The translations under genes were made by a program, and so were the position numbers. The notes beneath the pieces are model-generated. The model was not told the DNA's origin. It saw only the letters and a program-made list of their open reading frames with translations, and searched no databases. Below are positions 16,915-62,535 of a stretch of DNA of 64,000 nt, in pieces. Each line of letters begins with the position of its first letter. The first letter of the stretch is position 1. The DNA comes from Candidatus Zhuqueibacterota bacterium (GTDB taxonomy: Bacteria > Zhuqueibacterota > Zhuqueibacteria > Residuimicrobiales > Oceaniaggregativiventaceae): assembly GCA_014728085.1 (NCBI GenBank), contig WJMF01000020.1:74608-138607 (forward strand), read 5' to 3'.

Positions 16915-17399
16915 TCTCTTCTGATATTTCGCTTTTTCACACCAACATCCTCCTGCAGGTTGCTCCTAAAGCTCGCACATGACGTTTTCTTCAAACGCTA
17001 AACAGCCCTGAACAATATGCGATGTTCTATCGCATCCGGAAATGGTTCACTCGAAGGAATATTAATTATTTGATTGGTTTTTGTCTTGTTTTTTTTAAAA
17101 AAAATAGTCATTATAATACTAAATAGACTTGTAAAGGGGGCTTGCTACTATTCAATATAGAATTCTGGGCCAGAAAAACAATCTTTTTCATTTTTGAAAT
17201 CTATTGTCTCATGAATGTACAAATGTTTCAGTAAAACACGACCATTTTTTATACCGTTTTCAAGACGTCAACATATCCTTGTCGTTGTTTCAAAAACTCA
17301 TGTTTACAATTGCAGAAAAAATCGATAGTTGCATCCCGGACGTTTACCGCTGGATCTGTGAGCGGATTTTTTTAATCCGGGATCAAACGCTGAATTAAA

Positions 17400-17415
17400 T
17401 GGCACTGTATTTGCG
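17400..17415 (+). promoter_or_regulatory. Sigma-54 (-24/-12) promoter candidate: TGGCAC-N5-TTGCG
   Basis: tggcactgtatttgcg has the correct GG-N10-GC spacing. It lies 68 nt upstream of the ATG of the large secreted protein. Confidence 0.5.
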
Positions 17416-17482
17416 TTGCACTAGCCAGTATGCCATATCGGCATCACGAGGCCGAATTTTGGTGAATCAACTGGAGGAAAAG

Positions 17483-20400
17483 ATGAAACCGAATTTCTAT
17501 CTATGTATATTGTTACTGTTGATCGGGTTTACCGCCCCGCTGCTGGCTCAGGAAGGTACCATTATCGACAGAACCACGGCAGACCCGGAAAAAAGCGGCT
17601 ATGCCCGTTGGATAAAACTGACCTTTCAAACCACACCGGGCGGCACCAACAATCTCAACGACAATTTTAACGGTGTCAAGTTTATGATCGACCTGAATCT
17701 CGACCGGGACGATAACGCGACAACACACACCCCCGGTGAGGTTTATGCCATTCGTGGCGATTCGATCAAGACGCACTTTAACAACTCTGGTGGTCAATTT
17801 GATCAGTATTTGTATTTACCCATCAGAGGGAATCACGATACCAACATTCGGCCACGCGTAAAACTGGAAACCACAGGTTCACTCAGAATCGGCGCTTTTC
17901 AGCTAACCATCCAAAACGATACCGGATATGAAACCTGCCGCGACGGCATCAAACCGAACCTGAGAATGGCGATTTATTATGATGACGGCAGTGGTTCATC
18001 CGGTCCCGAACCGCAAAGCCCGGGCAATACCACCGCTTTTGACGGTTATATCGACCGCATCGATATTATCTGGAGTGAACCCATGGATACAACCAATAAA
18101 GCGGTTAGCGGCGACATTTTTAATGGACTTGGCGATACAATTCTGCGAACGCAAACGACAGGTGGGTGGTACGATGACGAAAACCCCCTGACCTATGACT
18201 ATCAGAGATTTACATTTTACGTTATTTCGAGCACACCCAATACCGGTGTCTCCATCACCCTCACCTATCAGCCCCCCGTCAGCAGCCTGGACAAATTCAA
18301 AGCCAAGTTTCCTTATGATGGTGTCAATCGCTATGAAGCTGAAAGCCATTCCGTCACGGTTCAGGACAAGGCGGGGCCGGCAATTATCAGCGCAAAGACC
18401 GTCAGAGCACATGGTAAAAGACGTCAGCCTCTGGCCGACGCACTTACCAGCAAACGCGTACTGGTCACCTTTAGCGAAAAGGTCAATCGCGCCAATTTAC
18501 TCCTCGATGATCTGACCTTTACCGTTACCATCATGGGTACGCAGCAGGATATTTATGCCGTGCGCTTTCCCACCAGCGGATATAGTAAAACCTTTGAAAT
18601 TGAGCTGGATGATCCCTATTCAACCGAAAACGATACCGGCAGTATTCGTTATAGCGGCAGCTCCCTGGTTTCGGATATCAATGGCAATCTTAATGGCATT
18701 TCTACAGCCAACGAGCCACCCACGCGACCCGCTGCGGGCTATGGACGCCTGATATACATTTGGGATGGAATCCTGCCCAACATTATCCGCGTCCGTACCC
18801 GAGATGTTGCTTTGCCGGGCGAGCTGATCAACGGCGGCGCAAACGGATGGGGGGTGCTCGATTATGTCGATATTATTTTTGATCACACCATGGACACAGG
18901 GCAGCTCAGCACGAGCGGCTTTACTGTCGAAGGAGAAGGCATACAGGGCATCGCCGGGGTTGGAACCTGGTTTAACAGCACCACTTTTCGCATCCCCATA
19001 GCGGCAAGCAACCCCAAAATGCCCAATACCGGCGTATTGCCACAGGTAAAATATGAAAACCCGGAAGCGCCGAACGGCATGAGAGATAACACAAATTACG
19101 GCTATACCGAAGATGTTTTCTACAGCGATACGATGTTGTCGAACAGCAATTACCGCATCGTGGAAATCATCGATAACGCCGGTCCGGCCATATGGCGAGC
19201 GACCACCGCGAGTAAAAACAGCATTCGCATCACCTTTAGCGAAAAAATCAAAACCAATTTTCCCTCGAGCTCCAATTGGCCGACAAATCCCGCACATGCC
19301 TATACTTCACCAAAAAAATTCATCTGGTATGTAGACAATGTTGCCTCCGAGGATACAGGAACCGAAATTTTCTTTACCGGCATTCAGCCGAACTATCAAA
19401 ACAAAATTGTTTATCTGCACCAGACCGGAACGACCTGGACAAAATACGATAGCGGTGGAATCAATTTCACCGGCCAGGGTGTTGTAAGAGATATTGCCAA
19501 CAACGGCAACGATCAGTATGATAATGATACCAGTCTGAGCTCAAAAACAATTCTGGGATCGGATGTCAAGGTATACAGAGATACGATTGCACCAAATCTT
19601 GTTGCCGTTCAAACTGTAGATACCGATTTGAACGGAAAAATTGACGGCTATCGATTTGTTTTTGACGACACCTCTGCCGTTTACCCCAAAACCTCTTTTA
19701 ATACTGAAAACTGGTCGGTTATATCCTATTATACGCTGGAAACCAAAACCTTGCTTGGATTGGATGAAAGCGGCTATACCGTCGTCGGTTCTGATACCCT
19801 CTCGGTCTTGTTGCGTTTCGAAGAAACCCCGAATGACACGTTGAAAAAGAGAGCTTATCTCGGTGACACCGGCGATGTTCCCGATATCATTGTTGCGACC
19901 GGCCAGGGCCTTTCAGACTGGGCCGGCAATGTTATGGATCCATTGCCCATCGGTATAACCAAAGAACAGGACAAATCCGGTCCTGCCATCTGCAGCGCCA
20001 AAACCATCAGTCTCCAGGACGTCGATGTCTTTGTTAGTGAAGATCTTAAAGACAGCACCGTTTCCCGGGAGGATTTTCTGCTCAATATGGTGGTTCAAAC
20101 CCCGATTACAAGCACGTTGCCCATCATAACCGCCACAGAACAGACACCCGAAATGCACAGCAATCCGGAGGAGATCAAACATGGCCGCGTCACGCTTACA
20201 GTACCCCTGGTAAGTGCATGGCAGCCGGATTATGAAGGCTTTGTGGCATTTTCCTATCCGGGCGCGGTCTATGATCACGTCAGCAATGGTCCCGGTGTCG
20301 ATCCCATGATGGACAATCCAAATACACAGCTGGACACTATTAAGGTCGACGACAATGCCGCCAGTCAGTTCGATATTCATGTGAAAATACCCGGCAATCC

Positions 20401-21994
20401 GGTTAGCGGTGCCCCCTTTCAGGTAGAAGTGATTGCCCTTGATAGTGATGGAGAGATAGACCGAAATTTTCCCTATGAAATCTTTTTCTCCAGCAACCTT
20501 CCGACAAATGATATCTCCATGCCATACGGCCCCCATGCATTGGAGGAAGGCGTGGGGCTGTTCACGGTTACAAGTTGGGTGGAAACCAACAATCTCGTCT
20601 TTATGGTTTCCGTGAATAATGATAACTATTCAGGATATCACAGCCAATCCGCGCCAATCACCATAGAAGCCCCGGTAATTGATGCGCCGGACACACTGAT
20701 CGTTGAGGACTATCCCAATGACCAGGGAAGCCATGTCATTTTAAAATTCGATTATTCCGACAACCATCCGGGTATCGGCGAAAACAATTTGATCAGCTAT
20801 TATCAGATTTACCGCGAAGTCAATCACCAGGTTTTCCATTGGTACACACAACCCGCTATCGACACGACAGGAAGCTATGCTGATTCAATGATTATCGTGC
20901 TCAATACAGTTGATAACGAAGAATCCAACTTTTGGGTACGTGCCGTCCACGACCGCAATCGAAGCCTCGCCAAACGATTTGTTTCTCAGACAGACGATCA
21001 GGACGGCTATCTTGTTGCCGAAAGCATAGATCCGATGATGCTTTACAGCGAAGGAAAAATCAGCGAAGAGTACGGCGCCTATATGAAAACCCTGAACGCC
21101 GGACAATATTTATCCGCAACGGTTATGTCTCATGGCCGGGCCGTCGATAACATACAACCCAAAATGCCTGAAAATCTATTGGCCGCCAAGGAAGGCGTCG
21201 CGGTTAAATTGATGTGGAATAAAGTCCGTTTGGGTGTCAACAACACACCCGAAGGAAAACTTTACTATGAAATCTATGCCCACAATCAAAACGCTTACTT
21301 TAATCCGGATGAAGATGGTGAGCTGCTGGCAACCATCGAAGATACGTCGTTTACCATTCCGGACAATCGTTTGCGACGGTTTTATTGCATACGCGCATTT
21401 GACGGAGACAACAGGTCCGCTGTCTCAAATCGGGTCGGGAAATATGGATTCACGATGAATAAAAACAAAAACAGTTCATTCAACTATCTCTCTTTTCCGC
21501 TGGAGACCTGGGATATAACGGATGCAAAGAGCGTATCGCAAATGATTGAAAACCTGCAAGTCCTCTACAAACTAAACCCGGTGACCAACAGCTTTTCGAC
21601 CTATTATATCCCACAGATAGAGTATGGAACCAACTTTGCCCTTGAAACCGGGGCGCCGCTGCTGGTAAACAACGATAAAACCATTGCCGATACCTGGTTT
21701 TATACCGGTAAAATACCAGCGGTTGGATCGGTTAAATTCACTCTGAACAAGGGTGAAAAATCCATCTTTAATGAAATCATCGTCCCACTGGACAAATTTG
21801 ATATTACCAATGCCGATCAATTGGCCAATAATATCGGCGGCATTGAGATTGTTTACAAGCTCGATCCGGAAACCAATGCCTTCAGTAAATTCTGGATCCC
21901 GGACATCGGCTATGGCGAAAATTTTGCAATCATGCCCGGTGAACCGGTACTTATCAACATTAATCAAAATGCCCCGGACATGTGGCCTAACTAG
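17483..21994 (+). CDS. Very large secreted protein (about 1504 aa) with a signal peptide, repeated Ig-like/beta-sandwich-type segments and a tandemly duplicated C-terminal roughly 55-aa module
   Basis: GGAGGAAAAG ribosome-binding site then ATG at 17483. Signal peptide MKPNFYLCILLLLIGFTAPLLAQ. No enzymatic motif was recognised. Internal repeat YKLNPVTNSFSTYYIPQIEYGTNFALETGAPLLVNND / YKLDPETNAFSKFWIPDIGYGENFAIMPGEPVLININ. Confidence 0.7.
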   Translation: MKPNFYLCILLLLIGFTAPLLAQEGTIIDRTTADPEKSGYARWIKLTFQTTPGGTNNLNDNFNGVKFMIDLNLDRDDNATTHTPGEVYAIRGDSIKTHFNNSGGQFDQYLYLPIRGNHDTNIRPRVKLETTGSLRIGAFQLTIQNDTGYETCRDGIKPNLRMAIYYDDGSGSSGPEPQSPGNTTAFDGYIDRIDIIWSEPMDTTNKAVSGDIFNGLGDTILRTQTTGGWYDDENPLTYDYQRFTFYVISSTPNTGVSITLTYQPPVSSLDKFKAKFPYDGVNRYEAESHSVTVQDKAGPAIISAKTVRAHGKRRQPLADALTSKRVLVTFSEKVNRANLLLDDLTFTVTIMGTQQDIYAVRFPTSGYSKTFEIELDDPYSTENDTGSIRYSGSSLVSDINGNLNGISTANEPPTRPAAGYGRLIYIWDGILPNIIRVRTRDVALPGELINGGANGWGVLDYVDIIFDHTMDTGQLSTSGFTVEGEGIQGIAGVGTWFNSTTFRIPIAASNPKMPNTGVLPQVKYENPEAPNGMRDNTNYGYTEDVFYSDTMLSNSNYRIVEIIDNAGPAIWRATTASKNSIRITFSEKIKTNFPSSSNWPTNPAHAYTSPKKFIWYVDNVASEDTGTEIFFTGIQPNYQNKIVYLHQTGTTWTKYDSGGINFTGQGVVRDIANNGNDQYDNDTSLSSKTILGSDVKVYRDTIAPNLVAVQTVDTDLNGKIDGYRFVFDDTSAVYPKTSFNTENWSVISYYTLETKTLLGLDESGYTVVGSDTLSVLLRFEETPNDTLKKRAYLGDTGDVPDIIVATGQGLSDWAGNVMDPLPIGITKEQDKSGPAICSAKTISLQDVDVFVSEDLKDSTVSREDFLLNMVVQTPITSTLPIITATEQTPEMHSNPEEIKHGRVTLTVPLVSAWQPDYEGFVAFSYPGAVYDHVSNGPGVDPMMDNPNTQLDTIKVDDNAASQFDIHVKIPGNPVSGAPFQVEVIALDSDGEIDRNFPYEIFFSSNLPTNDISMPYGPHALEEGVGLFTVTSWVETNNLVFMVSVNNDNYSGYHSQSAPITIEAPVIDAPDTLIVEDYPNDQGSHVILKFDYSDNHPGIGENNLISYYQIYREVNHQVFHWYTQPAIDTTGSYADSMIIVLNTVDNEESNFWVRAVHDRNRSLAKRFVSQTDDQDGYLVAESIDPMMLYSEGKISEEYGAYMKTLNAGQYLSATVMSHGRAVDNIQPKMPENLLAAKEGVAVKLMWNKVRLGVNNTPEGKLYYEIYAHNQNAYFNPDEDGELLATIEDTSFTIPDNRLRRFYCIRAFDGDNRSAVSNRVGKYGFTMNKNKNSSFNYLSFPLETWDITDAKSVSQMIENLQVLYKLNPVTNSFSTYYIPQIEYGTNFALETGAPLLVNNDKTIADTWFYTGKIPAVGSVKFTLNKGEKSIFNEIIVPLDKFDITNADQLANNIGGIEIVYKLDPETNAFSKFWIPDIGYGENFAIMPGEPVLININQNAPDMWPN

Positions 21995-22024: not shown

Positions 22025-22987
22025 ATGTTAAATAAAAAATTATTGATCAGCCTGTTTCTAGTCGTCAGCGCGACGCTTGTTTTGGCACAACCGCAAATGT
22101 CCAAACTGGTATGGGGAACGGTAAAAAATCCGGACGGAAGCACGCCGGGCATAAAAGAAGTAAAATATACCAGTTACCTGTCCAGTGAAATCACGGATTC
22201 AACCGATGTCGATAGCACAACCAATAATGGAGGCTGGGCAATCGATTTAAATGATTTTAATAACACGGGAAGTGAATGGGGAGAAGGCGATACCCTGTTT
22301 GTTCTCTTTGAGAATATTGCTTCCGGCGGTGAATTCAACGGCGTCACGTCAGTGCTTAAACATATTGCAGGCTCGGAATCAGATTATCCGCAGCAAATTA
22401 GCGTCTATACCCTTCCGGTTGAATTGGTGACCTTTGCATCACAGGTTGAAAAGGGATTACTGCATGACAGGGTGATATTGTCGTGGAAAACCCTCGGCGA
22501 GTCCAATAATTTTGGCTTTGCCATCGAGCGAAGTTTTGATGGCACAAGGTTTGAAGAAATTGGCTTTATCGCCGGTGCCGGATCAACCAATACAGCACGG
22601 CATTATGAATACAAGGATGGCCAAATCACTCAACCCGGGATCTACAGCTATCGCCTGAAACAAATCGATAACGACGGCACCTTTACCTATTCCAGGGTGG
22701 AGGAAATCACTCTGAATACACCGGAACACTATGAATTGCTGCAAAATTATCCAAATCCGTTCAATCCGGAAACCACGATAGCGTTCAAACTGAAAGAGGA
22801 TACCCGGGTGAATGTCACCATTTTTAATGTCCTCGGCAGGGAAGTAGAGACTCTGGTTGATAAAAAGATGAAAGCCGGTACCCATCAAATTGTTTTTAAT
22901 GCCGGTACACTGCCAAGCGGAATGTATTTTTATCATATGAAAACAAGCGATTTTAATCATGTACGCAAAATGGTCCTGATCAAATAA
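22025..22987 (+). CDS. Secreted protein with a type IX secretion (Por) C-terminal sorting domain
   Basis: C-terminus ELLQNYPNPFNPETTIAFKLKEDTRVNVTIFNVLGREVETLVDKKMKAGTHQIVFNAGTLPSGMYFYHMKTSDFNHVRKMVLIK matches the T9SS C-terminal domain. N-terminal signal peptide present. Confidence 0.8.
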   Translation: MLNKKLLISLFLVVSATLVLAQPQMSKLVWGTVKNPDGSTPGIKEVKYTSYLSSEITDSTDVDSTTNNGGWAIDLNDFNNTGSEWGEGDTLFVLFENIASGGEFNGVTSVLKHIAGSESDYPQQISVYTLPVELVTFASQVEKGLLHDRVILSWKTLGESNNFGFAIERSFDGTRFEEIGFIAGAGSTNTARHYEYKDGQITQPGIYSYRLKQIDNDGTFTYSRVEEITLNTPEHYELLQNYPNPFNPETTIAFKLKEDTRVNVTIFNVLGREVETLVDKKMKAGTHQIVFNAGTLPSGMYFYHMKTSDFNHVRKMVLIK

Positions 22988-27655: not shown

Positions 27656-27943
27656 TTACTGCTTTTGAGCTTTACGCATCCGATAAACACCGCTTAGGGA
27701 ATAAAACGCAATAGCGATCCAGATAATGTTGACAAACGTTGAAGGAAATGCCCGGTAATAAAAAGTATTGACGATGAGAAAAACACTACCGAATATATTC
27801 AATATTTGATAAAAAAGTGCGTTGCCTTCAACCCGTCTGGTTGAAACGAGAAAGTAAGCGATTAAAATCAATGCTGCACCGATCCAGCCGACAATATCAA
27901 CAATTAAATTTATACTCAACGAATGCCTCTTTCTTTTAAACAA
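27656..27943 (-). CDS. Small three-TM membrane protein, CBU_0592-family-like
   Basis: IVGWIGAALILIAY...LNIFGSVFLIVNTFYYRAFPS...NIIWIAIAFYSL resembles that family. It overlaps the selD stop by 8 nt, so it is likely coupled. Confidence 0.35.
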   Translation of the reverse strand: MFKRKRHSLSINLIVDIVGWIGAALILIAYFLVSTRRVEGNALFYQILNIFGSVFLIVNTFYYRAFPSTFVNIIWIAIAFYSLSGVYRMRKAQKQ

Positions 27944-28973
27944 CGCGTATGGCCTGGTCCTGCAATTCCGTTACATGCCCCACAATCGGCGCCGAAATTT
28001 CAGCCCGGGAAAAAGCCTGCTGCAACAATTTTGCCTTTTTTTCGGAAACCGATATCAACAATCCGCCTGAAGTTTGTGCATCGTTTAACAAAAGTTGTTC
28101 GGTTTCTCCAATGTTCTCCGCATAATGAACATGCGGCGCCACAAACAGACGATTGGCGCGGGATCCGCCCGGGATGTGCCCGCCTCTGGCTGTTATTTTT
28201 GCATCTTCAAGAACAGGAATCCGGTTGAGCTGAAAAACCAACCCTGTTTTGCTCGCCTGCGCCATTTCGAGGGCATGTCCCAAAAGCCCAAATCCGGTAA
28301 TATCCGTACATGCATGAATGCCGATTTGCCGGCAAATTTCCGAGGCCTGTTTGTTCAATTCAATCATGATCCGACAAACTCTCTTTTCCATTTCTGCAGA
28401 ACCCTTGCCCGCTTTTAAAGCCGTTGTAATTGTACCGGTACCGATTGGTTTGGTCAGGAACAACAGGTCGCCGGCACGCGCGCCGCTGTTGGTAAGGATA
28501 TGATTCGGGTGCACCGTTCCGGTAACCGCCAAACCATATTTGAGCTCATCATCGGAAATGGTATGACCACCGATAATCGCTGTATTCCCCTCCCTGGCCT
28601 TGTCATACCCTCCCCGCAATATTTCAGCAAGAACATCCAGCGAAAAAATGTCTTTGGGAAATCCAACAATATTCAATGCCGAAAGAGGCGTTCCGCCCAT
28701 GGCATATATATCGCTGAGAGAATTGGCTGCCGATATTTGCCCATAAACATAGGGATCATCGACAATGGGCGTGAAAAAATCGACGCTTTGCACCAACGCC
28801 AAATCATCATGCAGCCTGATAACACCAGCATCATCTGCGGTGTTCATACCGACCAAAACCCGCGGGTCTGTCACTCCGGGAAGTTTTTCCAATGCTTTTG
28901 CCAACTCCGTCGGCGCCAGTTTGGAAGCTCACCCGGCACATTTTACTGTTTCTGTCAACCGTTTCTGCTTCAT
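27936..28973 (-). CDS. selD: Selenide, water dikinase (selenophosphate synthetase), a selenoprotein with in-frame UGA (Sec) at 28929-28931
   Basis: Body motifs DDAGV, VDFFTPIVDDPYVYGQISAANSLSDIYAMGG and others. The track ORF starts at a TTG internal to the true gene. Extending upstream in frame gives ATG(28973) MKQKRLTETVKCAG-UGA-ASKLAPTELAKALEKL, which aligns with E. coli [23 protein letters not shown], with U at the catalytic Cys17 position. AAGGA ribosome-binding site 8 nt upstream. Confidence 0.85.
28894..28928 (-). ncRNA. Candidate bacterial SECIS hairpin immediately 3' of the selD UGA (intragenic)
   Basis: mRNA GCUU-CCAA-A-CU-[GGCGCCGACGG]-AG-UUGG-CAA-AAGC forms an imperfect stem-loop of about 10 bp. 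Its apical loop lies 12-22 nt after the UGA. Confidence 0.4.
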
Positions 28974-29002
28974 GAAAAATCCTTATCGATAAAAAGTTAC
29001 CC

Positions 29003-30016
29003 TCAAGACACAACCTGTGCCTTAATCGCTCTAAACCCCGTATCAGAAATAAAAGAACAATGGGTTTCACCATAAGGCTTTAATTGGGCGCAACCGACAC
29101 GGCCTTTTTTGTCGACCGCGATGTATTTTACATTAAAATCAACACTTCCCTTGTTGATGGCAATAATGCGCTTCAGAGCCTCTTCGCAGGCCTTTTGCGG
29201 ATGCATTCCCTGGCGCATCAACTCAACCGTCAAAAAAGAACCACAGGTGCGAATAACCTCTTCGCCGCGTCCGGTTGCGCCGGCCGCGCCGACCCGATTG
29301 TCGAGATACAAGCCCGCACCAATGATAGGCGAATCACCCACACGCCCGGGTATTTTAAACGCCAGGCCGGAAGTAGTGGTAATACCAAACACATCACCGC
29401 CGGCATCTATTCCCAGAACATTAATGGTGCCGGTGGGACGCTGATAAGCTTCATGGCTATAGTCATCATCCTTCGGCGGCAGCCAGTCATCATTTTCACT
29501 CAGGTTTTCTTTCCACTTTAACCAATTCAGCCTGGCTTTATCCGTCAAAAGATTTTCTTCAACAAATCCATGAGCCACGGCAAAGCGCCGGGCACCATCA
29601 CCCACCAGCAACATATGATCCGTGCGTTCCATGACCAGGCGCGCCACCGAACAGGCTCGTTTGATCTTTTCCAGAGCCGCAACAGCGCCGCAATTATGAG
29701 TAGGACCATGCATTACACAGCTGTCCAAAGAAACCACTCCCTCTTCATTGGGAAGACCGCCGTATCCAACAGAGCTGTCCTCCGGATCGAGTTCTGCAAT
29801 ATTGGCACCCCGTTCTACCGCATCCATCATCGAACCGGTTTTCTCCCAGGTGTTCCATGCCGGACCCAGAACCTTTTCACCCCATTCCGTACCACGACTG
29901 CAGACAATTATCGGAGCGGCAACAGCCACAGGATCCGCGGAGAGCGTTTTTTTACCATTTAAGAGTAATACAGCCCCTGCCGCACCCTTGAAAAAATCTC
30001 TTCTTGAAGTCATCAT
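29003..30016 (-). CDS. Isoaspartyl peptidase / L-asparaginase (Ntn-hydrolase, plant-type asparaginase family) with a Tat signal
   Basis: Twin-arginine signal MMTSRRDFFKGAAGAVLL, then GTVGAV-type segments and an autoproteolytic GT nucleophile region (TGTINVLGIDAGG). Confidence 0.8.
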   Translation of the reverse strand: MMTSRRDFFKGAAGAVLLLNGKKTLSADPVAVAAPIIVCSRGTEWGEKVLGPAWNTWEKTGSMMDAVERGANIAELDPEDSSVGYGGLPNEEGVVSLDSCVMHGPTHNCGAVAALEKIKRACSVARLVMERTDHMLLVGDGARRFAVAHGFVEENLLTDKARLNWLKWKENLSENDDWLPPKDDDYSHEAYQRPTGTINVLGIDAGGDVFGITTTSGLAFKIPGRVGDSPIIGAGLYLDNRVGAAGATGRGEEVIRTCGSFLTVELMRQGMHPQKACEEALKRIIAINKGSVDFNVKYIAVDKKGRVGCAQLKPYGETHCSFISDTGFRAIKAQVVS

Positions 30017-30579: not shown

Positions 30580-30656
30580 TGGCGGGGCCGACGGGACTTG
30601 AACCCGCGACCTCCGGCTTGACAGGCCGGTGTGCTAACCAACTGCACTACGACCCC
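30580..30656 (-). tRNA. tRNA-Asp (anticodon GTC)
   Basis: The reverse complement GGGGTCGTAGTGCAGTTGGTTAGCACACCGGCCTGTCAAGCCGGAGGTCGCGGGTTCAAGTCCCGTCGGCCCCGCCA folds as a cloverleaf with CCA encoded. Close to E. coli tRNA-Asp. Confidence 0.9.
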
Positions 30657-30685
30657 GTAAACACTAAACATTTCAATAATAACCG

Positions 30686-30761
30686 GGTGGGCCGTACTGG
30701 ATTCGAACCAGTGGCCTCCTGCTTGTAAGGCAGGCGCTCTAAACCAGCTGAGCTAACAGCC
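30686..30761 (-). tRNA. tRNA-Val (anticodon TAC)
   Basis: The reverse complement GGGCTGTTAGCTCAGCTGGTTTAGAGCGCCTGCCTTACAAGCAGGAGGCCACTGGTTCGAATCCAGTACGGCCCACC has the anticodon loop CTTACAA. Confidence 0.9.
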
Positions 30762-30783
30762 CGAAATCGTTAACCCCTCGATT

Positions 30784-40138: not shown

Positions 40139-41545
40139 ATGACGTTTAACGTCAACAGAACTGTATACAATATGGTTGAAATGAAAACAAGTTTAGATCA
40201 AGACGTAACAAGAATTATACTGGAAAGTATATCCGATGGTGTCTTTACCGTCGATCACGACTGGCGTATAACTTCTTTTAATCGCGCAGCGGAAAAAATT
40301 ACCGGTATTCAGCGCCGGGAAGCAATCGGTAAAAAATGCTTTGAGGTCTTTCGTTCAAACATGTGCGAGACGGACTGTGCTCTGCGCCGGACTATGAGGG
40401 AGGGTAAACCCTTTATCGATACAAGCACTTATATTGTCAATGCTGACCAGGAACGAATTCCGGTAATTGTCTCCACCGCGCTTCTCAGGGATAAAAAGGG
40501 CGCTATTATCGGTGGTGTTGAGACATTTCGCGACATGACCATCATCGAGGCATTACGCCGCGAGCTGGATGGCCGTCATCAAATCGGAGATATGATCAGT
40601 CACAATGCAAAAATGCAGGAAATTTTTGCTATTCTGCCTCAAATTGCTGAAAGCGAAAGCACTGTTTTGATTCAGGGAGAAACAGGTACGGGTAAGGAAA
40701 TACTGGCGAAAGCAATTCATGAATTCAGTCCACGTAAAAACGCTGATTTTGTCGCCATAAATTGTGGCGCCCTTCCGGATTCCTTGCTGGAATCCGAGCT
40801 TTTTGGCTATAAAAAAGGGGCTTTTACCGGTGCCGTGCATGACAAGCCGGGCCGCCTGGCTGCGGCTGAAAGCGGCACGCTTTTCCTCGATGAAATTGGC
40901 AGCATCAGCCCCGCATTTCAGGTACGCCTATTGCGCGTCCTGCAGGAAAAAACCTATACCCCTCTGGGGAGTAACAAATTCAAGAATGCCGACATCCGCA
41001 TCATCGCTGCAACACACGACAATTTAGAAACCCTGGTGGATCAAAATCTCTTTCGAAAGGACCTCTTTTATCGCATTAATGTTATGAAACTGCAGCTCCC
41101 ACCGCTGAGAGAACGCAAAGAAGATATTCCCTTGCTGATCGAGCACATAATACACCGCCTGAATCACACCCGCAATAAATGTATCCAGGGTATCACTCAG
41201 GAAGCACTGGCCCTGCTGATGGTTTGTGAGTATCCCGGCAATATTCGGGAACTTGAAAATATCATAGAACATGCCTTTGTGCTCTGTACCAAAGAAGAAA
41301 TAGATATTTCCTCTCTGCCGGAGAATATACATCCCGGCTCTGATCCGCAATCAACAACCTCTGTAAAAAAAGCCCTCGAGATAGCCGAAGCAGAAACGAT
41401 TTTGCAACTGCTGAAACGCAATCACTATAATCGCTATAAAACAGCGCAAGACCTCGGCATTCATAAAAGCACACTCTTTCGAAAAATTAAAAAACTGGGA
41501 ATTAACCTGCCAAAAATCGATGGCCGCTCGACACACTCGCGCTAA
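40139..41545 (+). CDS. Sigma-54-dependent transcriptional activator (PAS sensor, AAA+ domain, Fis-type HTH)
   Basis: N-terminal PAS domain (ILESISDGVFTVDHDWRITSFNRAAEKITG...), Walker A GETGTGKE, GAFTGA ([14 protein letters not shown]), and an HTH (YKTAQDLGIHKSTLFRKIKKLGI). Confidence 0.9.
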   Translation: MTFNVNRTVYNMVEMKTSLDQDVTRIILESISDGVFTVDHDWRITSFNRAAEKITGIQRREAIGKKCFEVFRSNMCETDCALRRTMREGKPFIDTSTYIVNADQERIPVIVSTALLRDKKGAIIGGVETFRDMTIIEALRRELDGRHQIGDMISHNAKMQEIFAILPQIAESESTVLIQGETGTGKEILAKAIHEFSPRKNADFVAINCGALPDSLLESELFGYKKGAFTGAVHDKPGRLAAAESGTLFLDEIGSISPAFQVRLLRVLQEKTYTPLGSNKFKNADIRIIAATHDNLETLVDQNLFRKDLFYRINVMKLQLPPLRERKEDIPLLIEHIIHRLNHTRNKCIQGITQEALALLMVCEYPGNIRELENIIEHAFVLCTKEEIDISSLPENIHPGSDPQSTTSVKKALEIAEAETILQLLKRNHYNRYKTAQDLGIHKSTLFRKIKKLGINLPKIDGRSTHSR

Positions 41546-41578
41546 CAATGCAATCTTGCGTTTATAGCGATTAATCAA

Positions 41579-41594
41579 GTCGCAAATATGCGAC
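41579..41594. promoter_or_regulatory. Perfect 16-bp palindrome GTCGCAAATATGCGAC, a candidate enhancer (upstream activating sequence) for the adjacent activator
   Basis: A dyad about 85 bp upstream of the -24 element, which is typical placement for an enhancer-binding-protein site. A second partial dyad TGCAATCTTGCG sits at 41549-41560. Confidence 0.35.
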
Positions 41595-41679
41595 CCTGTT
41601 AAAATTTTAATCCAGACAGCAAAATTATAAATTATTAAAATACAGCTGGATAACCGCCTTCTCAACAGAGGCGAATGAT

Positions 41680-41695
41680 TGGCATTGTTGTTGCT
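41680..41695 (+). promoter_or_regulatory. Sigma-54 promoter: TGGCAT-N5-TTGCT
   Basis: tggcattgttgttgct has the canonical GG/GC spacing. It lies 30 nt upstream of the ATG at 41726. Confidence 0.6.
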
Positions 41696-41725
41696 TATAA
41701 TCCAATGAAAAAGGGAACCAAATCC

Positions 41726-42103
41726 ATGAAAGTAGGCATTACAGTCTGGCAAAACCGGATTTCTCCGGTATTTGATGTCGCTAAACACGTCAAGGTAATT
41801 CGGCTCGATAACAACGCCGTCCAGATCAAGGATCTGGAAATGACATCTTCGCTGCCGCTGCAGCGCGCAGAGCTTCTTTCAAATGCCGGTATCAAGGTCT
41901 TAATCTGCGGAGCGATATCCGTTCCTTTTGCAAAAATGATTGCCGGCAGAAACATTAAAGTCATTCCTTTTATTGCCGGCGAGTTTTCAACTGTGCTCAA
42001 TGCCTATCTGAATAGCAATCTTGAACGCCCGGAATTTAATATGCCGGGATACCGGCGGCAACGTCGCCGGCGTTTTCACGGTGGCAGACCAAATGGTAGA
42101 TAG
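41726..42103 (+). CDS. NifX/NafY/NifB-C-terminal-like protein (dinitrogenase FeMo-cofactor-binding fold, PF02579-like) with an Arg-rich C-terminal tail
   Basis: MKVGITVWQNRISPVFDVAKHVKVIRLD...AELLSNAGIKVLICGAISVPFAKMIAGRNIKVIPF fits the family profile (ISP.FG.A..F..........L...GV.VLI.G.IG......L...GI.V). Tail RRQRRRRFHGGRPNGR. Confidence 0.7.
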   Translation: MKVGITVWQNRISPVFDVAKHVKVIRLDNNAVQIKDLEMTSSLPLQRAELLSNAGIKVLICGAISVPFAKMIAGRNIKVIPFIAGEFSTVLNAYLNSNLERPEFNMPGYRRQRRRRFHGGRPNGR

Positions 42104-42141
42104 AGAGATGAACCCGAAAACAATATAAAGGAGGTGAACAT

Positions 42142-42357
42142 ATGCCGAGAGGTGACGGAACCGGCCCCCGGGGACAAGGGCCGCAAACAGGACGCGGGAT
42201 GGGACCTTGTGGTGATAACAATTCTCCGCAAGCGAACAACAATCCAAATCCCAATGCTGGATGGGGTCGACGCCTTATTAATGGATTAAGCAATGCGTTT
42301 GGCCGCCGTCGCGGCCGTGGTCAGGGTCAGGGTCAGGGCCGCAAAGGTAATGATTAA
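42142..42357 (+). CDS. Small Gly/Arg-rich protein, DUF5320-like N-terminal motif only (71 aa)
   Basis: Strong ribosome-binding site AAGGAGGTGAACATATG. MPRGDGTGPRGQGPQTGRGMGPCGDNN then an N/P-rich linker and GRRRGRGQGQGQGRKG. No C-terminal coiled coil. Confidence 0.6.
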   Translation: MPRGDGTGPRGQGPQTGRGMGPCGDNNSPQANNNPNPNAGWGRRLINGLSNAFGRRRGRGQGQGQGRKGND

Positions 42358-42385
42358 TTATAACCTATTGGAAAGGAGGCATATC

Positions 42386-42742
42386 ATGCCCGCAGGAGAT
42401 GGGACAGGTCCCGCAGGAATGGGACCGATGACAGGCCGTGCTGCAGGATATTGCACCGGTTATGGCGTGCCCGGTCATATGAATCCGGGTCCCGGACGCG
42501 GTCGGGGATTCGGCCGCGGTATGAGAATGGGATTCCGCGGTGGCCGGGGGCCGATGTGGGGGCACGGATATTCGCCATATTGGTACGGAGCCCCTGTAGC
42601 ATATAACACACCCGCAACCGCAGCACCAACAGCACAACAGGAAATCGATGTCTTACGATCGCAGGCAGAATATTTTGAAAATATGCTCAAAGAGATCAGC
42701 CAGCGCATCGATGAACTGGAAAAACAAAAGACCGAGGAATAA
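42386..42742 (+). CDS. DUF5320-family-like protein (118 aa): conserved MPxGDGTGPxGxGPxTGR..C N-terminus, RG/GY-rich middle, C-terminal coiled coil
   Basis: Ribosome-binding site GAAAGGAGGCATATCATG. MPAGDGTGPAGMGPMTGRAAGYCTGYG...GRGRGFGRGMRMGFRGGRGPMWGHGYSPYWYG...EIDVLRSQAEYFENMLKEISQRIDELEKQK. Confidence 0.65.
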   Translation: MPAGDGTGPAGMGPMTGRAAGYCTGYGVPGHMNPGPGRGRGFGRGMRMGFRGGRGPMWGHGYSPYWYGAPVAYNTPATAAPTAQQEIDVLRSQAEYFENMLKEISQRIDELEKQKTEE

Positions 42743-42750
42743 GCAGGAAC

Positions 42751-42774
42751 GGGATTGCCTAAAATGCAATCCCG
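42751..42774 (+). terminator. Hairpin terminator after the DUF5320 gene
   Basis: GGGATTGC-ctaaaat-GCAATCCC: a perfect 8-bp stem. The downstream U-tract is weak. Confidence 0.4.
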
Positions 42775-42845
42775 CTTCTCCTTAACAGTAAAAACAACCC
42801 TGCAGCTGAGATCAATACAAAAAAGCATACGAAAAGGCGGCCAAA

Positions 42846-43556
42846 GTGACCAATCAAAAAAAAACAAAAACGAGTAAAGCAAAAATAAATTTCATCATCG
42901 ACGTTGTTCTCCTTATCCTGCTCTTTCTGATTGGCTCCATCGGCATTTTGATAAAATATGTGCTGCTTTCAGGACAAGAAAGCTGGGAAAAATATCACCA
43001 AAAAGTAGAACTGCTCTTATTCGGTTGGGATCGGCATCAATGGGGAACCCTGCATTTCATTCTTTCCGCGATTTTCATAGCACTGATCTTGCTTCATATC
43101 ATCTTGCACTGGAGCCAGGTGAAATGTCTCTTTAAACTTACCATTGCACCGAAAACAGCGCGTATTATTCTAACCAGTCTGTTTCTTTTCATCTGTTTGC
43201 TATTGTTGCTCTTGCCCTTTGTCTTGCCGATTGAAATCAATGTTGTCCCGACCGGCCAGGGCAGACAACACATACTCGAATCTGAAAAGAAAAAGTCCGG
43301 ACCGGAACCGCAAGGAATGGAGCAAAATCATTCCCCCAATCAAAAACATCAACCGGAAATCCAAGGCTATATGACCCTGGAAGATGTGGCAATTCAATAT
43401 GGAATATCTGCAGACACGCTGAAAAAACATCTCGGCATCGCTCAGAAGGTGCCAAACAAAAGCCGCCTCGGACATTTACGACGGCAATATCATTTTAAAA
43501 TGAGCACAATAGAACGCTTGATTCAGAAAAAATTGAACAACCCATCATCTCCTTAG
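42846..43556 (+). CDS. Membrane protein (three or four TM helices, DUF4405-like N-terminal region with a soluble C-terminal domain)
   Basis: TM helices with HW/HxxxH features (LHFILSAIFIALILLHIILHW). GTG start at 42846. Confidence 0.45.
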   Translation: MTNQKKTKTSKAKINFIIDVVLLILLFLIGSIGILIKYVLLSGQESWEKYHQKVELLLFGWDRHQWGTLHFILSAIFIALILLHIILHWSQVKCLFKLTIAPKTARIILTSLFLFICLLLLLLPFVLPIEINVVPTGQGRQHILESEKKKSGPEPQGMEQNHSPNQKHQPEIQGYMTLEDVAIQYGISADTLKKHLGIAQKVPNKSRLGHLRRQYHFKMSTIERLIQKKLNNPSSP

Positions 43557-62144: not shown

Positions 62145-62492
62145 ATGAAGCACCCCCTCGGTGACAGGTTTAAACCAGGTGAGGTCCTGCTTGCCGTCAT
62201 CAATGAAACACCTGCATTTTTTTTGCGGATTGAAAATATCATTGCAGATCGTAAACCCGATTGGTGGCGATTGGAGTTTCTTGTTCTGACACTCCCCCTG
62301 GTACAAACCACCTGGATCGTAGATGACGAACAGATAAGAGGAGCACCCTTTACTATGGCCGGCAAACCGGTCCGAATGGAGCGAGTCAAAGCGCCTGAAT
62401 CTTCTGAAAACCCGCAACAAAAAGAAAAAATCAGCAAAGACGATCAAAAACAGGCGAATGTCATATCTCTCTTCGATCAGAAAAATAAATGA
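62145..62492 (+). CDS. Hypothetical protein (115 aa)
   Basis: AAAGGA ribosome-binding site 13 nt after the OmpA stop. No recognised family. Confidence 0.35.
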   Translation: MKHPLGDRFKPGEVLLAVINETPAFFLRIENIIADRKPDWWRLEFLVLTLPLVQTTWIVDDEQIRGAPFTMAGKPVRMERVKAPESSENPQQKEKISKDDQKQANVISLFDQKNK

Positions 62493-62535
62493 TACGACGA
62501 TAATTTCCGATCAGGAAACACTCTGGAGATGAAAA

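Follow-up and report, generated by a model that had tools for sequence, protein, structure and literature searches.

The window, that is the whole stretch of 64,000 nucleotides of DNA that was analyzed, carries on its minus strand a selD gene with an in-frame TGA codon. The gene and the elements within and next to it are located as follows.

28980-28984, minus strand: AAGGA, Shine-Dalgarno-like, 6 nt 5' of the ATG, read from the sequence and with a presumed function.
28971-28973, minus strand: ATG start of selD, the sole possible start in the frame.
27936-28973, minus strand: selD, full coding sequence with a predicted selenocysteine (Sec) at residue 15, from the translation and from profile and PDB matches.
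28938-28940, minus strand: TGT, Cys12, which forms C-x-x-U with Sec15, from the translation and the alignment of relatives.
28929-28931, minus strand: in-frame TGA, putative Sec codon (residue 15), homologous to Cys17 of E. coli SelD.
28920-28922, minus strand: AAA, Lys18, which pairs with E. coli Lys20 in the alignment with 3u0o.
28887-28926, minus strand: whole predicted SECIS-like domain, composed of a lower stem and the enclosed hairpin H1, with a minimum free energy (MFE) of -13.7 kcal/mol.
28900-28914, minus strand: H1, apical SECIS-like hairpin 20 nt after the UGA, from its fold (-7.7 kcal/mol) and from relatives.
27936-28904, minus strand: truncated ORF of the kind proposed by gene callers, with a TTG start and 322 aa, without the catalytic loop, from the ORF list and homologues.

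Upstream of selD lies an asparaginase-2-family gene (29003-30016, minus strand), with 29 nt from its stop to the selD ATG, and downstream lies a gene for a CBU_0592-family small membrane protein, with an 8-nt overlap between its start and the selD stop. This short gap and this overlap suggest co-transcription. The order of the asparaginase-2-family gene and selD (27656-30016 in the window, minus strand) is kept in four relatives, L161, L162, L163 and L170; among these, only L161 and L162 have the CBU_0592-family gene after selD, and an unannotated opposite-strand gene follows selD instead in L163 and L170. Synteny between the window and L162 (MAG GCA_054920095.1) extends over many genes. The window is chromosomal, as it contains rpsB, tsf, pyrH, frr, rplM, rpsI, pyrB and pyrC at a GC content of 46.6%, and its products include a T9SS-sorted protein as well as several sigma-54 activators. 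The sole RNA genes detected in it are a tandem of tRNA-Asp(GTC) and tRNA-Val(TAC) at 30580-30762 (minus strand). Elsewhere in the window, a 1531-aa ORF (17399-21994, plus strand), for which Pfam gave no match at 1e-6, precedes the gene of a 320-aa protein (22025-22987, plus strand) that has a T9SS sorting domain at its C-terminus, and the pair is also present in L162. At 40139-43556 (plus strand), a sigma-54 activator gene precedes DUF5320 and DUF4405 genes; this cluster is conserved in L162, where it additionally encodes a Nitro_FeMo-Co (dinitrogenase cofactor-binding-like) protein.

The selD frame comprises 345 residues plus the stop, i.e., 346 codons, and terminates at a TAA (27938-27936, minus strand). 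The 14 sense codons from the ATG to the TGA read MKQKRLTETVKCAG, and past the TGA at 28931-28929 the frame is open for 330 further codons. The preceding in-frame stop is located 3 codons before the ATG; because the intervening codons, GGA TTT TTC, are all non-start codons, the ATG at 28973 is the only possible start of selD. A first-pass annotation of this DNA had stated that the listed ORF starts at an internal TTG, and that reading upstream in frame gives an extension from an ATG through a UGA. Both features are read directly in the sequence, the TTG being at 28904 and the extension running from the ATG at 28973 through the TGA.

For the protein searches, we used the 345-residue product with a Cys at the position of the TGA. 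The NCBIfam profile TIGR00476 (selD) was matched from its position 1 with 378.5 bits (cutoff 125), in agreement with the earlier identification of the extended frame as selD, and NF002098 was matched with 322.7 bits (cutoff 299). The product also contains the Pfam domains AIRS (PF00586, 5e-27) and AIRS_C (PF02769, 3e-19). Among the structures, SelD of Aquifex aeolicus (PDB 2yye) was matched at E = 3e-66, aligned from query residue 6, and SelD of E. coli (PDB 3u0o) at E = 4e-60, with an alignment over residues 5-315 (HMMER). In the latter alignment, query R5 corresponds to chain R7, a register that places the TGA (residue 15) on Cys17, exactly where the first-pass annotation had put it, and K18 on Lys20, the lysine of the catalytic loop. 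The N-terminal glycine-rich loop G-[Cys/Sec]-x-x-Lys is present in the product, and A-G-U-A-S-K here corresponds to A-G-C17-G-C-K20 in E. coli and to S-G-C-A-A-K in Aquifex. Overall, judged by these matches, the product of 27936-28973 (minus strand) is a full-length, equivalog-level SelD, for which selenophosphate synthesis is predicted.

We compared the selD DNA of the window with that of 15 SelD loci of close relatives (55-95% protein identity), which gave 16 sequences in total. Relatives with a sense codon at the position of the TGA and an N-terminus encoded elsewhere had been named beforehand as the finding that would speak against a Sec codon; we observed TGA at this codon in 16/16 sequences of the close clade, including the syntenic L162. 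The upstream peptide RLTE[TS]VKCAG was likewise kept in 16/16 sequences, with third positions that vary freely, and the pairwise synonymous diversity of codons -9 to 0 was 0.627, the same as that of codons 61-330. A conserved peptide with background-level synonymous diversity upstream of the TGA indicates that this stretch is translated and is not a leader. Taken together, the comparison shows protein-level selection on the codons before the UGA, and translation starts from the ATG at 28973.

A broad sample was formed by 80 genome loci among the matches listed, from many phyla and mostly with an identity of about 50%, of which 76 were parsed. At the aligned Sec codon, these parsed loci among the matches listed carried TGA in 56 cases and TGT or TGC in 20, so that the alignment of Sec and Cys forms, suggested in the first-pass annotation as a check, places both at the same codon. 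In a set of 160 loci biased towards the relatives of the window, a Cys at -3 (C-x-x-U) was observed in 60/139 Sec-type and 0/21 Cys-type loci, and a Cys at +2, as in E. coli, was present in 24 loci of the Sec type and 15 of the Cys type.

Among the 48 substantial ORFs of the window, 7 are terminated by TGA. Since TGA ends other genes of the window, the genetic code is standard and a genome-wide reassignment of UGA is excluded. A screen of the window for long same-frame segments split by one TGA returned chance or overlap cases only. The only one of these in an otherwise empty intergenic stretch, the TGA at 62530-62532, was rejected as a read-through codon: the downstream ORF starts with the lipoprotein signal peptide MKKLLILSLFLILASC, which marks the true start, and the in-frame TGA just before it is therefore a chance occurrence. 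The gap of about 400 nt before this alkaline-phosphatase-like lipoprotein gene contains a 115-aa ATG ORF (62145-62492, plus strand) of unassigned nature.

On the RNA level, H1 is composed of a 6-bp stem, GCCGAC/GUUGGC (28914-28909 paired with 28905-28900), and of the loop GGA (28908-28906). In the MFE structure obtained with ViennaRNA, H1 is enclosed by a lower stem that pairs 28926-28918 with 28896-28887; this lower stem is paired at 83% across the relatives, and an alternative hairpin, H2, competes with it in most of them. The first-pass annotation had drawn the hairpin at 28894-28928, a version that adds 4 bp (GCUU/AAGC) below H1. That version has the same apex and, with its 4-bp base included, also evaluates to -7.7 kcal/mol; the MFE structure (-13.7 kcal/mol) takes another lower stem and not GCUU/AAGC.

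According to the published bSECIS model, the loop has 3-9 nt, the stem 4-16 bp and one of the first two loop positions is a G (PMC13188914); the loop lies 16-37 nt from the UGA, and the MFE is at most -7.5 kcal/mol (PMC13188914). In the window, the apical loop has 3 nt (GGA) and begins with GG, the upper stem has 6 bp, the loop follows the UGA at a spacing of 20 nt, and the MFE is -7.7 kcal/mol without and -13.7 kcal/mol with the lower stem. H1 hence lies within every published bSECIS limit, and the proposal of a plausible bacterial SECIS 3' of the UGA holds. Sec-containing SelD genes have indeed yielded bSECIS elements (PMC4561486). Using our own implementation of the same limits, 49/57 Sec-type SelD genes passed, but so did 10/20 Cys-type genes and 127/300 codon-order shuffles of the window sequence (42%), and the consensus is thus a weak discriminator when taken alone. 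The stability of the fold was uninformative as SECIS evidence, with z = -0.25 and -0.36 relative to dinucleotide shuffles. A search with Rfam, including its SECIS models, was negative both for the whole window at the gathering score and for 28840-28990 with the threshold relaxed to E <= 10.

Along the selD alignment of the close clade, synonymous diversity was lowest at codons +6 to +17, which correspond to nt 16-51 after the UGA: among the 224 12-column segments, this one was at 0.276 versus a median of 0.607, and the next non-overlapping segment was at 0.536. Random column sets were as low in 0/100,000 draws. This low diversity indicates an RNA constraint on top of the coding constraint. The core pairs of H1 were kept in all 16 close-clade sequences, and 2 of these pairs showed compensatory changes. 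In addition, the fold of nt 4-48 was stronger in Sec-type genes than in Cys-type genes of similar GC content (-15.3 versus -10.6 kcal/mol; Mann-Whitney p = 4.5e-4). Overall, these results strongly argue for an overlapping RNA element that would constrain the selD coding sequence where a bacterial SECIS is expected. It is this comparative evidence, and not the stability of the fold or the permissive consensus, that carries the putative SECIS assignment of the H1 region.

Two hairpin positions were observed among the relatives when the region corresponding to 28880-28914 (minus strand) of the window was compared. The window, L161, L162 and L084 carry a stable GGA-loop hairpin 20 nt after the UGA, and are without H2. 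About 10 other loci (L163, L170, L001, L081-L083, L164-L166 and L169) carry H2 at nt 34-52 after the UGA, that is GCAGCUUU-GGA-AAAGCUGC, a perfect 8-bp hairpin of -10.1 kcal/mol with a spacing of 38 nt, 1 nt past the published range of 16-37 nt. In the H2 carriers, H1 is weaker, with 5 bp and the loop AUGAA; L166 carries both a stable H1 and H2. This complementary distribution suggests either a relocation of the SECIS or a two-hairpin SECIS. Because most relatives have the stronger H2, which is absent from the window, the helix that SelB would bind is uncertain. A move of the functional SECIS within this uncultured FCB/KSB1-like SelD clade, or a two-hairpin SECIS, is a rather unlikely interpretation, which we put forward tentatively. 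If it were true, with SelB reading H2 in the relatives and H1 here, it would represent a natural relocation of a SECIS between close orthologues.

We searched for the Sec machinery around selD. ARAGORN detected no tRNA-Sec in the 64-kb window, only tRNA-Asp and tRNA-Val, and tblastn searches at 1e-10 with the SelA and SelB proteins of E. coli detected no selA or selB in it. Among the 48 window ORFs, none matched selU/ybbB, yqeB/C or fdhA in NCBIfam or Pfam. With the tblastn and ARAGORN probes, selA, selB and tRNA-Sec were found within 10 kb of selD in no close relative, whereas the same probes detected selA at 16, selB at 18 and tRNA-Sec at 13 loci, at most 10 kb from selD, in a set of 23 distant loci. 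The presence of the machinery beside selD in distant loci and its absence from this vicinity in close relatives indicate that selD is not clustered with it in the close clade. The absence of selA, selB and tRNA-Sec from 64 kb is neither for nor against their presence elsewhere in the genome.

The consequences for annotation extend beyond the window. Among the 120 best database homologues, 117 have 290-330 aa and begin just past the Sec position, which bears out the expectation that gene callers truncate this gene. The exceptions among these best 120 are the Cys-type proteins P0102 and P0119, and P0004, which is recorded with a W at the position. The DNA of P0004 (L165, a contig of 1.4 kb) has a TGA there, and translation with table 11 does not give the recorded protein; the W was therefore rejected as an artefact of gene calling with code 4. 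The nearest labelled SelD among the matches listed come from "candidate division KSB1" and from an "uncultured Cytophagia" MAG, so that the window probably belongs to an uncultured lineage of the FCB group. The practical value of the present analysis is an annotation fix: the whole uncultured clade is systematically mis-annotated, and the correct annotation of the window would be selD at 27936-28973 (minus strand) with a Sec exception at 28929-28931.

Taken together, the gene, its relatives and the putative RNA element make it very probable that Sec is inserted into this SelD through the standard SelB/SECIS mechanism of bacteria. Translation initiates at the ATG at 28973 and proceeds to the UGA at 28931-28929, which would be recoded by SelB carrying Sec-tRNA(Sec). 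SelB is predicted to bind the hairpin just 3' of the UGA, with its apex at 28914-28900 and a lower stem that reaches 28926-28887. Sec would thereby be placed where E. coli SelD has Cys17, 3 residues before the loop lysine. The product of the resulting enzyme, selenophosphate, is itself required to make Sec-tRNA(Sec), and since SelD makes this compound, selD would depend on its own product. The gene identifies its organism as one that decodes Sec, and from it we infer that the genome must also encode selA, selB and selC outside the window; further UGA-containing genes may possibly exist elsewhere.

A read-through of the UGA without Sec seems very unlikely to us. It would insert Cys or Trp by near-cognate decoding promoted by RNA structure, as proposed for the hymenopteran SPS1-UGA. 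UGA-adjacent stem-loops can promote such an event in eukaryotic SPS genes (PMC4561486), and it would agree with a window in which the machinery was not observed. However, it has been described for eukaryotic paralogues of changed function, and the protein here is a SelD at the equivalog level. Moreover, the UGA occupies the Cys position of Cys-type bacterial SelD, it stands at the same position in the selD of loci with adjacent selA, selB or selC, and bacterial Sec-type SelD is well established. We hold it to be extremely improbable that the TGA is a genuine stop, in which case the gene would start at the TTG at 28904 (or at a later ATG) or be a pseudogene, and the 14 codons would be non-coding. 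This is the model picked by the gene callers, and it does not call for the machinery that was not seen in the window, but its product would be deprived of the G-[U/C]-x-x-K catalytic loop (Cys17/Lys20 in E. coli), and the TTG (28904-28902, minus strand) sits within the 3' arm of H1. In addition, neither a nonsense mutation nor non-coding DNA would be expected to give a TGA that is invariant down to 55% identity, preceded by the RLTE[TS]VKCAG peptide in all 16 close-clade sequences at background-level synonymous diversity. A reassigned code, with UGA read as Trp (table 4) or Gly (table 25), has next to no probability, as the W recorded in P0004 is a caller artefact, TGA terminates other ORFs of the window, no other long window ORF needs a TGA read-through, and Cys-type homologues have the catalytic Cys at this position.

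Sec-containing SelD is textbook knowledge and has been known for decades; a Sec-containing selD with an in-frame UGA is of a long-known and widespread kind, and biologically there is nothing new in it. Among prokaryotic selenoprotein families, SelD ranks second in size, and its Sec lies in the N-terminal loop (PMC13188914); in bacteria, the two selenoproteins with the widest distribution are FdhA and SelD (PMC1794560). SelD selenoproteins have been listed for Deltaproteobacteria, Clostridia and Pasteurellales (PMC1794560, PMC4561486). The gene described here resembles Sec-type bacterial SelD in having the UGA at the catalytic loop position, followed by x-x-K, and a stem-loop within the coding sequence directly downstream. 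The chain of Aquifex SelD (PDB 2yye/2zod) has G-C-A-A-K where G-U-A-S-K is found here; the native Aquifex enzyme contains Sec, and the crystals were those of a Cys mutant. As a difference, the clade of the window has a Cys at -3 (C-x-x-U) and not at +2. The hairpin sequence also differs from the GGUCC...GGACC hairpin that is common in other phyla, and otherwise nothing fundamental sets the gene apart.

With SelD of E. coli (3u0o), the predicted protein shares the loop, the Lys and the AIRS fold; the E. coli enzyme has Cys17 (of the TGT/TGC type) and Cys19 at +2, and needs neither recoding nor a SECIS. The comparison with the SECIS of E. coli fdhF, and with bSECIS elements in general, likewise shows an in-ORF stem-loop 3' of the UGA with a small G-G/U apical loop about 20 nt away. 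In contrast to the fdhF element, the hairpin here has a 3-nt GGA loop, no sequence similarity to it and no Rfam match, and its binding by SelB is a prediction. Finally, the selenoproteins SPS2/SEPHS2 of eukaryotes and archaea likewise have their Sec at the homologous position (PMC4561486), but these depend on a SECIS in the 3'-UTR and on EFSec/SBP2, whereas the selD described here would use a hairpin inside the ORF for SelB.
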